Position numbers and translations under genes: made by a program. This document shows positions 1,038 to 1,356 of a stretch of 64,000 nucleotides of DNA, in pieces. This DNA is from an uncultured Erysipelotrichaceae bacterium. Its GTDB lineage: Bacteria; Bacillota_I; Bacilli_A; RF39; UBA660. Where the stretch lies: the NCBI GenBank assembly GCA_902788735.1, contig CADALJ010000001.1, forward strand, positions 4,005 to 68,004, in the 5' to 3' direction. The stretch's first letter is position 1; each line of letters opens with the position of its first letter. The notes under the pieces were generated by a model, which saw only the letters and a list, made by a program, of their open reading frames with translations, had not been told where the DNA came from and ran no database searches.

Positions 1038-1356
1038 ATTAAATGCTAAATTTACTTGTATCTTAAATAGTGAAGACTTGAATAATAATGAAGTTAAAAT
1101 CAAAAACAATAAAACAAAAGAAGAAGAAATCATTAGCCTTGATGTATTAATCTATTATTTAGATGAAAAGATTAATGCAGGCGGGGAAGACGAATGTGAC
1201 TGTGGAGAACACTGTCACTGTGATGAAGATTGCGACTGTGGATGTAAGTCAGGTCAATCATGTACTTGCGGATGCGGTGATAAATGTGAATGCGATGATG
1301 ACTGCGACTGTGGATGCAAGTCAGGCCAATCATGTACATGCCATGAAGGGAAGTAA
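940..1356 (+). other. hisS: remainder of HisS anticodon-binding domain in +1 frame ([51 protein letters not shown]) fused to 55-aa Cys/Asp-rich tail
   Basis: Hand translation of frame 1 from 940 matches the C-terminal anticodon-binding domain of Bacillus HisS. About 26 aa of the domain start are missing relative to the canonical protein. The tail is GGEDECDCGEHCHCDEDCDCGCKSGQSCTCGCGDKCECDDDCDCGCKSGQSCTCHEGK. Confidence 0.55.
1201..1338 (+). repeat. 78-bp tandem duplication encoding the repeated Cys-rich unit (C-x-C-D-[ED]-D-CDCGCKSGQSCTC)
   Basis: Two near-identical DNA copies: gattgcgactgtggatgtaagtcaggtcaatcatgtacttgc and gactgcgactgtggatgcaagtcaggccaatcatgtacatgc. Confidence 0.7.

Follow-up and report, generated by a model that had tools for sequence, protein, structure and literature searches.

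A cysteine-rich, metallothionein-like tail on the histidyl-tRNA synthetase of uncultured gut Bacilli and its free-standing small-protein relatives

Metal-binding tails on housekeeping proteins and small metallothioneins are both already known in bacteria. In Helicobacter pylori, the GroES protein HspA has a His/Cys-rich C-terminal tail that scavenges or stores Ni (PMC8779794, PMC5116745), and mycobacterial MymT and other small cytosolic Cys-rich proteins are cytoplasmic Cu(I) sinks (PMC11672702). According to one study, only six prokaryotic sequences are annotated as metallothioneins in UniProt, and 20 of the 23 candidates that were mined from metagenomes and synthesised gave metal resistance (PMC11705764). 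Here, a stretch of 64,000 nucleotides from an uncultured Erysipelotrichaceae bacterium (contig CADALJ010000001.1, referred to below as the window) was analysed. Its gene for histidyl-tRNA synthetase (HisRS), hisS, ends in a Cys-rich tail, and a 31-codon open reading frame (ORF) elsewhere in the window encodes a peptide with the same motif. Bacterial metallothioneins are considered rare, yet most species of the large gut lineage studied here, which is uncultured and genome-reduced, carry this Cys-rich module. The features of the tail and of the small ORF are as follows.

1177-1356, + strand: C-terminal extension of HisRS, consisting of the linker KINAGG, the Cys-rich tail and the stop codon TAA (1354-1356)
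1186-1353, + strand: Cys/Asp/Glu/Gly/His-rich metallothionein-like tail, 56 aa, EDECDCGEHCHCDEDCDCGCKSGQSCTCGCGDKCECDDDCDCGCKSGQSCTCHEGK, with 17 Cys
1201-1269, + strand: direct repeat copy 1, 72-nt period, CGEHCHCDEDCDCGCKSGQSCTC, from a repeat search
1273-1341, + strand: direct repeat copy 2, CGDKCECDDDCDCGCKSGQSCTC, 81% identical to copy 1, from the same search
1345-1353, + strand: GAAGGGAAG, the final tail codons E-G-K and a probable Shine-Dalgarno site of aspS
63608-63614, + strand: GGTGGTG, a Shine-Dalgarno-like site 5 nt before the small ORF
63620-63715, + strand: Cys-rich small ORF, 31 aa, MKECCKKTERNDEEKKCNCDETCDCGCHNNK, with 7 Cys
63714-63741, + strand: terminator-like hairpin (8 bp, AAAGGAAC-GATA-GTTCCTTT) and T-run, starting within the stop codon of the small ORF

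The tail is read in the frame of the HisRS anticodon-binding domain. Approximately 62 residues lie beyond the end of the PF03129 match, 56 of them making up the Cys-rich portion. Cys accounts for 30% of these (17/56), against 0.9% in the long ORFs of the window; Phe, Trp and Tyr are absent, and CxC and CxCxC motifs recur. The coding sequence is equally distinct, with a GC content of 47% against 25.8% for the window, TGC making up 41% of its Cys codons (21% elsewhere) and GAC 50% of its Asp codons (11% elsewhere). Both the Cys density and the GC content are far beyond chance. A first-pass annotation, made from the sequence by a model, had described 55 extra residues with 20 Cys, built from two 26-aa repeats encoded by a 78-bp duplication. 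The extension and the direct repeat stand, but the Cys number 17 and the repeat period is 72 nt, or 24 aa, with copies of 81% identity. Tandem Repeats Finder, run on window positions 1000-1500, reported no repeat. Folding of the tail-coding RNA gave no excess structure (z = -0.47), so the conservation of the tail is not explained by RNA structure.

A tail of this kind is shared across the lineage. A search of metagenome proteins with the C-terminal 134 aa of HisRS identified 153 HisRS C-terminal fragments at E <= 0.001, and a Cys/His/Asp/Glu-rich tail follows ...YYLDE in 17 of the 18 whose sequences were inspected. The single tail-less fragment, P0082, diverges just before the tail into a serine recombinase (PF00239), a sign that an element may have inserted into hisS at its 3' end. 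In a second scan, with one genome per species, 402 relatives were found, the best 80 were examined and 72 HisRS genes were parsed. The best 80 of the 402 are uncultured gut metagenome-assembled genomes (goat, sheep, roe deer, cattle rumen, human, chicken), labelled as Bacilli bacterium, uncultured Erysipelotrichaceae, Mollicutes, Tenericutes or Candidatus Faecimonas. The parsed HisRS is full length, at 449-579 aa, in 69 of the 72, and the other three are cut by a contig end. Cys-bearing tails are present in 70 of these 72 species, ranging from 24 to 132 aa with 3 to 41 Cys; the medians over the parsed species are 38 aa and 7 Cys. The longest, in L016 (about 3217-3615), is 132 aa with 41 Cys and consists of approximately 20 tandem CSCGD[DG] hexapeptides, and in several relatives the tail ends ...HECCGHCHHEEEE or ...CCGKHHEATHKCECHHKED. 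The presence of the tail at the same locus in 70 of 72 species indicates vertical inheritance.

Within the tail, it is the Cys that are conserved by selection. When the window tail is aligned with that of L005, each of the 17 aligned Cys is kept, 8 of them with a switch between TGT and TGC, while 17 of the 45 non-Cys positions differ; six further pairwise comparisons of tails gave similar results. An open frame has been kept over tens of codons in AT-rich genomes, and the tails therefore differ by whole codons. The unit KSGQSC occurs twice in the window tail and once in the close relative L109, and P0001 has two units with a variant of its own (QEEKVC/HEEKVC). Because the repeats within one species share variants, duplication and deletion are ongoing, or the repeats evolve in concert. 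It is likely that the module changes length through in-frame gain and loss of units of 6-28 residues, with selection retaining the Cys, and often His, and the spacer residues free to vary.

The same module is carried by free-standing genes. A scan of metagenome DNA for the pattern C-x-C-D-[DE]-x-C-D-C-G-C identified 110 ORFs, of which approximately 15 are HisRS tails. Many of the others stand alone as genes of 41-71 codons that encode 12-19 Cys and are equipped with AAGGAGG ribosome-binding sites and terminators; their contigs have 23-31% GC. One of them, on L212, starts MEKEKKCNCDETCDCGC..., a string that is also present in the window peptide, and a search with the L212 protein identified at least 65 clusters of proteins of 30-85 aa, all of them lacking a Pfam domain and a source name. 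The consensus is MEKEKKCNCxxxCTCGCQEGKECTC..., with 25-33% Cys, CxC motifs and no aromatic residues, and MEKEKKCNCDETCDCGCQEGKECTCDENCTCGCHKGKECTCDDDCECKKEHE is a typical member. The family is defined here by an N-terminal (E/K)KKCNCxxxCxCGC unit with five invariant Cys and by its own ribosome-binding site and terminator. Its members sit in varying genomic contexts, either ending in their own terminators or preceding unrelated genes, and for six free-standing relatives no Pfam or NCBIfam model was found.

Likeness between these genes and the HisRS tails extends to the DNA. The free-standing protein P0170, of 35 aa, and the HisRS tail of P0004 share 86% identity over 29 aa (E 1e-15, composition-adjusted), and the DNA of free-standing genes is 80-93% identical over 50-110 nt to that of hisS tails from many loci. 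Judged by these identities, the HisRS tail and the free-standing genes are homologous, and the motif that the first-pass annotation saw in both the tail and the small ORF is a real shared module. Their DNA appears similar enough to recombine, or at least to confuse assemblers. In L219, from 115-222 onward, a free-standing gene with its own ribosome-binding site and an MEKEKKCNC... start is joined to the 3' end of a hisS tail, followed by aspS. The join is within the shared CGCQEGKECTC repeat, at approximately nt 157-167, beyond which the sequence is 94.5% identical to L012; L219 has arisen either by chimeric assembly or by genuine recombination.

The small ORF of the window belongs with this family as a truncated and divergent member, since it keeps the five Cys, contains an insertion and stops after CGCH. 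Translation of the window in six frames contains C.CD[DE].CDCGC exactly three times, two of them in the tail and the third in the small ORF. Of 5000 shuffles that preserved the composition of the whole peptide, 27 reached the quality of its own match to the tail; for its Cys-rich half, which was chosen after alignment, none of 5000 did. Aligned with the family, it keeps the invariant C17, C19, C23, C25 and C27, together with G26, at 55-76% identity to family members over aligned positions, and the DNA at 63657-63702 is 78% identical over 46 nt to the family member of L219. It differs in a unique 10-residue N-terminal insertion, MKECCKKTERND, and it ends at CGCHNNK, with neither the second half-unit QEGKECTC nor the minimum of 30-35 aa of repeat sequence. 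The identical 31-aa protein has been called as a gene on at least 21 contigs. The ribosome-binding site and terminator that had been proposed for the ORF were both located, as the GGTGGTG 5 nt upstream and the hairpin with its T-run; two terminator-like sites were found there against 0.1 expected from shuffles. The hairpin at 63714-63733 is palindromic and scored as terminator-like on both strands.

On longer conspecific contigs, the genes around the small ORF encode a Cyclophil_like2 lipoprotein, an AAA ATPase, proteins without a Pfam match, a DUF362 protein and a PNPOx protein. The downstream neighbour, of 422 aa, had no relatives in a JGI metagenome scan, and a synteny search with all of the neighbours gave a single link, to DUF362 in L147. 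There, a family member lies approximately 1 kb upstream of a DUF362 gene whose product is 49% identical to the DUF362 protein encoded 3.9 kb downstream of the ORF in the window species. The synteny with L147 is loose.

The module is also found on other proteins, as the first-pass annotation had thought worth checking. On low-GC metagenome contigs, the motif is at the C-terminus of an ArsR-family HTH_5 regulator (L161:2918-3409, - strand), at the N-terminus of GrpE (L177 and L209 by Pfam; L195, L198 and L210 judged by sequence), at the C-termini of MinE (L193) and of a Fer4 ferredoxin (L108), and inserted in Hsp20 (L156) and YbeY (L137). It is present in a predicted lipoprotein, P0139, which has a signal-peptide-like N-terminus and no Pfam match, and, by reading of the sequences, in a pyruvate:ferredoxin oxidoreductase, a peptidase and others in higher-GC taxa. 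A part of these cases is probably convergent low-complexity sequence. Many ArsR-family regulators sense metals, and the ArsR-family fusion is for this reason the best contextual hint of a metal role; by eye, it lies near genes resembling thioredoxin reductase and a glutaredoxin/NrdH-type protein. The suggestion that the module is a mobile cassette can be kept in the sense of domain shuffling. It fails otherwise, given the near-universal presence of the tail at one locus and the absence of any match to the motif pattern in viral contigs, a search that did not extend to plasmid collections.

The hisS-aspS locus of the window bears an 80-nt deletion that is absent from conspecific contigs. Its remaining features are as follows.

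1-940, + strand: catalytic-domain part of hisS in frame 3, its 5' end cut by the window edge (TIGR00442 28-314, E 1.6e-113; PF13393)
940-941, + strand: junction of the 80-nt deletion in hisS, approximately 27 codons lost (LELEKVKLPIVEDIDLFIMYVNEEEKKYA region) and the frame shifted
941-1176, + strand: anticodon-binding-domain part of hisS in frame 1, as the tail (PF03129 HGTP_anticodon, E 1.1e-8; TIGR00442 345-405)
1361-2674, + strand: aspS, encoding a non-discriminating, archaeal-type AspRS (NF003483, E 7.4e-139)

HisRS is split in the window, with an N-terminal part of 319 aa in one frame and the tail-bearing C-terminal part in another, and it lacks TIGR00442 positions 315-344. The exact AspRS protein of the window is present on 17 other contigs. 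Five of these span the deletion site (L097-L101) and in all five hisS is uninterrupted, encoding both HisRS domains (PF13393 and PF03129) and the tail in one polypeptide of 481 aa, with tail DNA identical to that of the window. Compared with L097, the window hisS has three single-nucleotide differences and the 80-nt deletion, which corresponds to L097:2001-2080; no microhomology was found at the 940|941 junction. The upstream frameshift noted in the first-pass annotation is therefore real in the window, and the tail is in frame once it is corrected. Since conspecific contigs carry an intact hisS and an identical tail, this species reads the tail in frame with a functional HisRS. The deletion is confined to this strain or to this assembly, and it may reflect an error of assembly or a pseudogene at the level of the strain. 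By Pfam and NCBIfam profiles, the catalytic and anticodon-binding domains are ordinary.

Downstream, the hisS stop and the ATG of aspS are 4 nt apart, a spacing that would suit translational coupling of aspS to hisS. The tail ending ...HEGK* recurs and overlaps the likely aspS Shine-Dalgarno site, the analogous end of the tail in L007 being AAGGAGGAT. The genes are ordered dtd-hisS-aspS, an arrangement typical of Firmicutes. AspRS here is a short enzyme of the non-discriminating type, which implies synthesis of Asn-tRNA by transamidation in this organism.

Fragmentary hisS genes raised the idea of a conserved split gene or a recoded stop codon, which does not hold in general: the five cases inspected have mixed, trivial causes, and full-length hisS is the rule among the species-representative genomes. 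The causes include gaps of N (L004, L005), a rearrangement (L006) and a noisy long-read assembly (L003). At L007:2610-2620, and likewise in L008-L010, a run of seven A stands where eight would keep the hisS frame (GAAGAAAAAAATATG). An identical two-piece hisS was called on four or more independent contigs that derive from different samples, and the possible causes are a real frameshift that slippage rescues, a pseudogene and a systematic error in the homopolymer. On the 33-kb contig L001, an in-frame TAA (3956-3958) interrupts hisS (LEL*KVKLP) at a position that is Glu or Gln in relatives; sequencing error, pseudogene formation and readthrough are all possible explanations. The repeats themselves disrupt assemblies and gene calls, as seen in a chimeric contig, reports of fragmented hisS and unannotated small genes.

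Elsewhere in the window, Rfam identified a full-length 6S RNA at 4151-4334 (+ strand, 70.7 bits) and two tRNAs, and nothing else. A listed ORF of 369 aa with a TTG start (4153-5262) overlaps the 6S RNA, and the true start of this gene is therefore probably further downstream. One tRNA, at 47639-47715 (+ strand), has the anticodon CCU. In the RFN20 order of uncultured Bacilli, one clade reads AGG as Met and another CGG as Trp (PMC8629427). AGG-to-Met recoding is not indicated here, where AGG is rare (1.3 per 1000 codons, against 21 for ATG) and CGG is used for three codons in the window.

The most plausible reading of the module is that it binds metal. More precisely, the tail and the free-standing peptides would be a metal-thiolate-binding module that acts as a buffer or sink, for which a probability of roughly 0.6 seems appropriate. 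Metal binding is suggested by the composition, including the His-rich ends of the tail in many relatives, by the ArsR-family fusion and by the precedents; like the identity of the metal and the physiological role, it is read from sequence. The module appears to be built from short CxC and CxCGC units, spaced by Asp, Glu, Gly, Lys and His and free of aromatic residues, and its thiolates, with His and carboxylates, could bind Zn(II), Cu(I), Ni(II) or Cd(II) in clusters. Without metal, it probably lacks a fixed structure. An abundant, constitutive housekeeping enzyme and a small cytosolic peptide may thus both serve as metal buffers or sinks, with free-standing genes of 30-85 codons carrying the module in the lineage and the 31-aa ORF of the window being a shortened, divergent copy. 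In operational terms, a metallothionein has about 15-35% Cys, CxC, CC or CxxC motifs and few or no aromatic residues, and is a free-standing protein of low molecular weight that holds several metal ions in thiolate clusters. The tail has this composition (17 Cys in 56 residues, no aromatics) and the peptide has 7 Cys in 31; the 31-aa ORF and the 30-85-aa family are also small and free-standing, while the HisRS tail is a fused module.

Several points weigh against this reading. A single curated model, Metallothio_5, gives the tail any signal, at 18.7 bits where the cut-off is 25 (E 0.0019), and the bacterial SmtA-type family (Metallothio_Pro) and NCBIfam gave no match for the tail, the peptide or the six free-standing relatives. 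On profile comparison, the module falls outside every curated metallothionein family. No metal transporter or regulator genes are beside hisS or the small ORF in the contexts examined. The tails of L063 and L064, 2 of the 72 species, are acidic and contain no Cys, which is therefore dispensable in some species. The peptide of the window is, by its sequence, a truncated and atypical orphan variant, with a ribosome-binding site weaker than the AAGGAGG typical of the free-standing family; it is a singleton in clustering at 90% identity, and a phmmer search of 1.84 billion cluster representatives matched it only to itself, although that search is uninformative for a 16-aa motif, since the HisRS tail of this same genome was also unreported. 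Structure prediction is of little help either way: AlphaFold2 modelled the C-terminal 134 aa with a mean predicted local distance difference test score of 47, too poor for a firm reading of the tail, so the lack of predicted structure in it carries little weight. A phmmer search of PDB sequences found nothing. Metal binding also leaves HisRS as the usual carrier unexplained, and there is no evidence of an effect of the tail on aminoacylation.

Four other explanations were weighed, all of which are less likely than metal binding. One is that the run of Cys codons senses the supply of Cys, slowing ribosomes when Cys-tRNA is scarce and so modulating the coupled aspS or termination at the small ORF, the peptide itself being irrelevant. 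Poly-Cys leader ORFs act as attenuators in mycobacteria, and the layout is suggestive, with aspS starting 4 nt beyond hisS, its Shine-Dalgarno site within the last tail codons and the terminator of the small ORF starting within its stop codon; conservation of the Cys codons is predicted equally well. Such a sensor is nonetheless quite improbable. A codon counter has no need of periodic CxC or of enrichment in His, Asp, Glu and Gly, the logic of coupling is inapplicable where the module is at the N-terminus of a protein (GrpE) or within it (Hsp20, YbeY), free-standing homologues have their own terminators or unrelated genes downstream in varying contexts, and neither AspRS nor the genes 3' of the small ORF are connected to cysteine metabolism. 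Less improbable, though still unlikely, is a redox or Fe-S module, with reversible disulfides or Fe-S ligation making the tail an oxidative-stress sensor or buffer for HisRS in these anaerobes. The high Cys density agrees with this, as do the ferredoxin among the carriers (L108) and the apparent redox-type genes near the ArsR fusion of L161. The CxC and CxCxC spacing with Asp, Glu and His flanks is typical of metal-thiolate clusters, however, and unlike CxxC redox pairs or CX2CX2CX3C Fe-S motifs, and a range of 3 to 41 Cys suits a function of capacity better than a defined cluster site.

It could also be supposed that the tail is a functionless, slippage-prone C-terminal repeat, a neutral low-complexity expansion, and that the small ORF is spurious or a decaying remnant. 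The tail is indeed highly variable in length and sequence and contains tandem repeats, two species have no Cys in it, and the small ORF of the window is truncated, atypical and an orphan at the sensitivity of phmmer. Neutrality is very unlikely all the same when an open frame of 24-132 codons is kept in 70 of 72 species with genomes of approximately 26% GC, when the Cys are retained despite synonymous turnover and GC-rich codons persist against mutational bias, and when independent free-standing genes with strong ribosome-binding sites and terminators bear the same module. Decay of the small ORF alone, which is a separate question, is a minority possibility that deserves some weight. The least credible proposal is that the small ORF encodes the precursor of a ribosomally synthesised and post-translationally modified peptide, on which a radical-SAM or similar enzyme would act. 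The product is indeed short and rich in Cys, and the gene has expression signals of its own, but the peptide is not organised into leader and core, its homologue is the tail of a cytosolic enzyme, and the family members are found in differing contexts. The first-pass annotation had suggested a check for a radical-SAM or other maturase gene beyond the window; on longer conspecific contigs (L091-L096), Pfam annotation shows no radical-SAM, cyclodehydratase, lanthipeptide or peptidase/transporter genes within approximately 6 kb on either side.

Metal binding by the module thus keeps its place as the preferred reading. A bolder version of it, which must be considered doubtful, is that the module is a metal-, cysteine- or redox-responsive regulatory appendage linking HisRS, GrpE, MinE, Hsp20 and YbeY to metal status in genome-reduced gut Bacilli, and that with the free peptides it forms a widespread, unrecognised metallothionein system whose copies recombine between hisS and small genes. 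No description of Cys-rich tails on HisRS or other synthetases, or of the small-protein family, was found in the searchable literature, and the novelty appears to lie in the carrier, in the repeat family and in how widely it occurs among uncultured gut Bacilli. If the module binds metal, it would represent a new bacterial metallothionein family and, for aminoacyl-tRNA synthetases, an appended domain of a new kind. Gut bacteria would then also have a new means of metal handling, which may matter for dietary Zn and Cu in livestock and humans.

Like MymT, SmtA and BmtA, the free-standing proteins of 30-85 aa are small and Cys-rich (25-33%) with CxC motifs. They differ from SmtA in having no Metallothio_Pro match, no evident zinc-finger-like fold and the consensus unit CxCGCQEGKECTC, and from the Csp proteins, which are four-helix bundles. 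The CxCGxxCxC spacing with Gly, Ser and Lys resembles that of Drosophila Mtn (eukaryotic metallothionein family 5, PF02067), a likeness that is compositional, the score being below threshold and homology unsupported. The HisRS itself has the ordinary domains of the canonical bacterial enzyme (TIGR00442, about 420 aa) and differs from it in the 24-132 extra C-terminal residues.

H. pylori HspA offers a close parallel for the tail, as a lineage-specific Cys/His/acidic C-terminal extension, dispensable for the core fold, on an essential and abundant housekeeping protein. The HisRS tails of several relatives, which end ...HECCGHCHHEEEE or ...CCGKHHEATHKCECHHKED, are of a style resembling HspA. The metal-binding tail of E. 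coli SlyD is a further comparable case. Unlike HspA, the carrier here is a class II aminoacyl-tRNA synthetase and a homologous family of free-standing genes exists, and many of the HisRS tails are almost purely Cys, Asp and Gly, in the style of a metallothionein, with variable tandem repeats.

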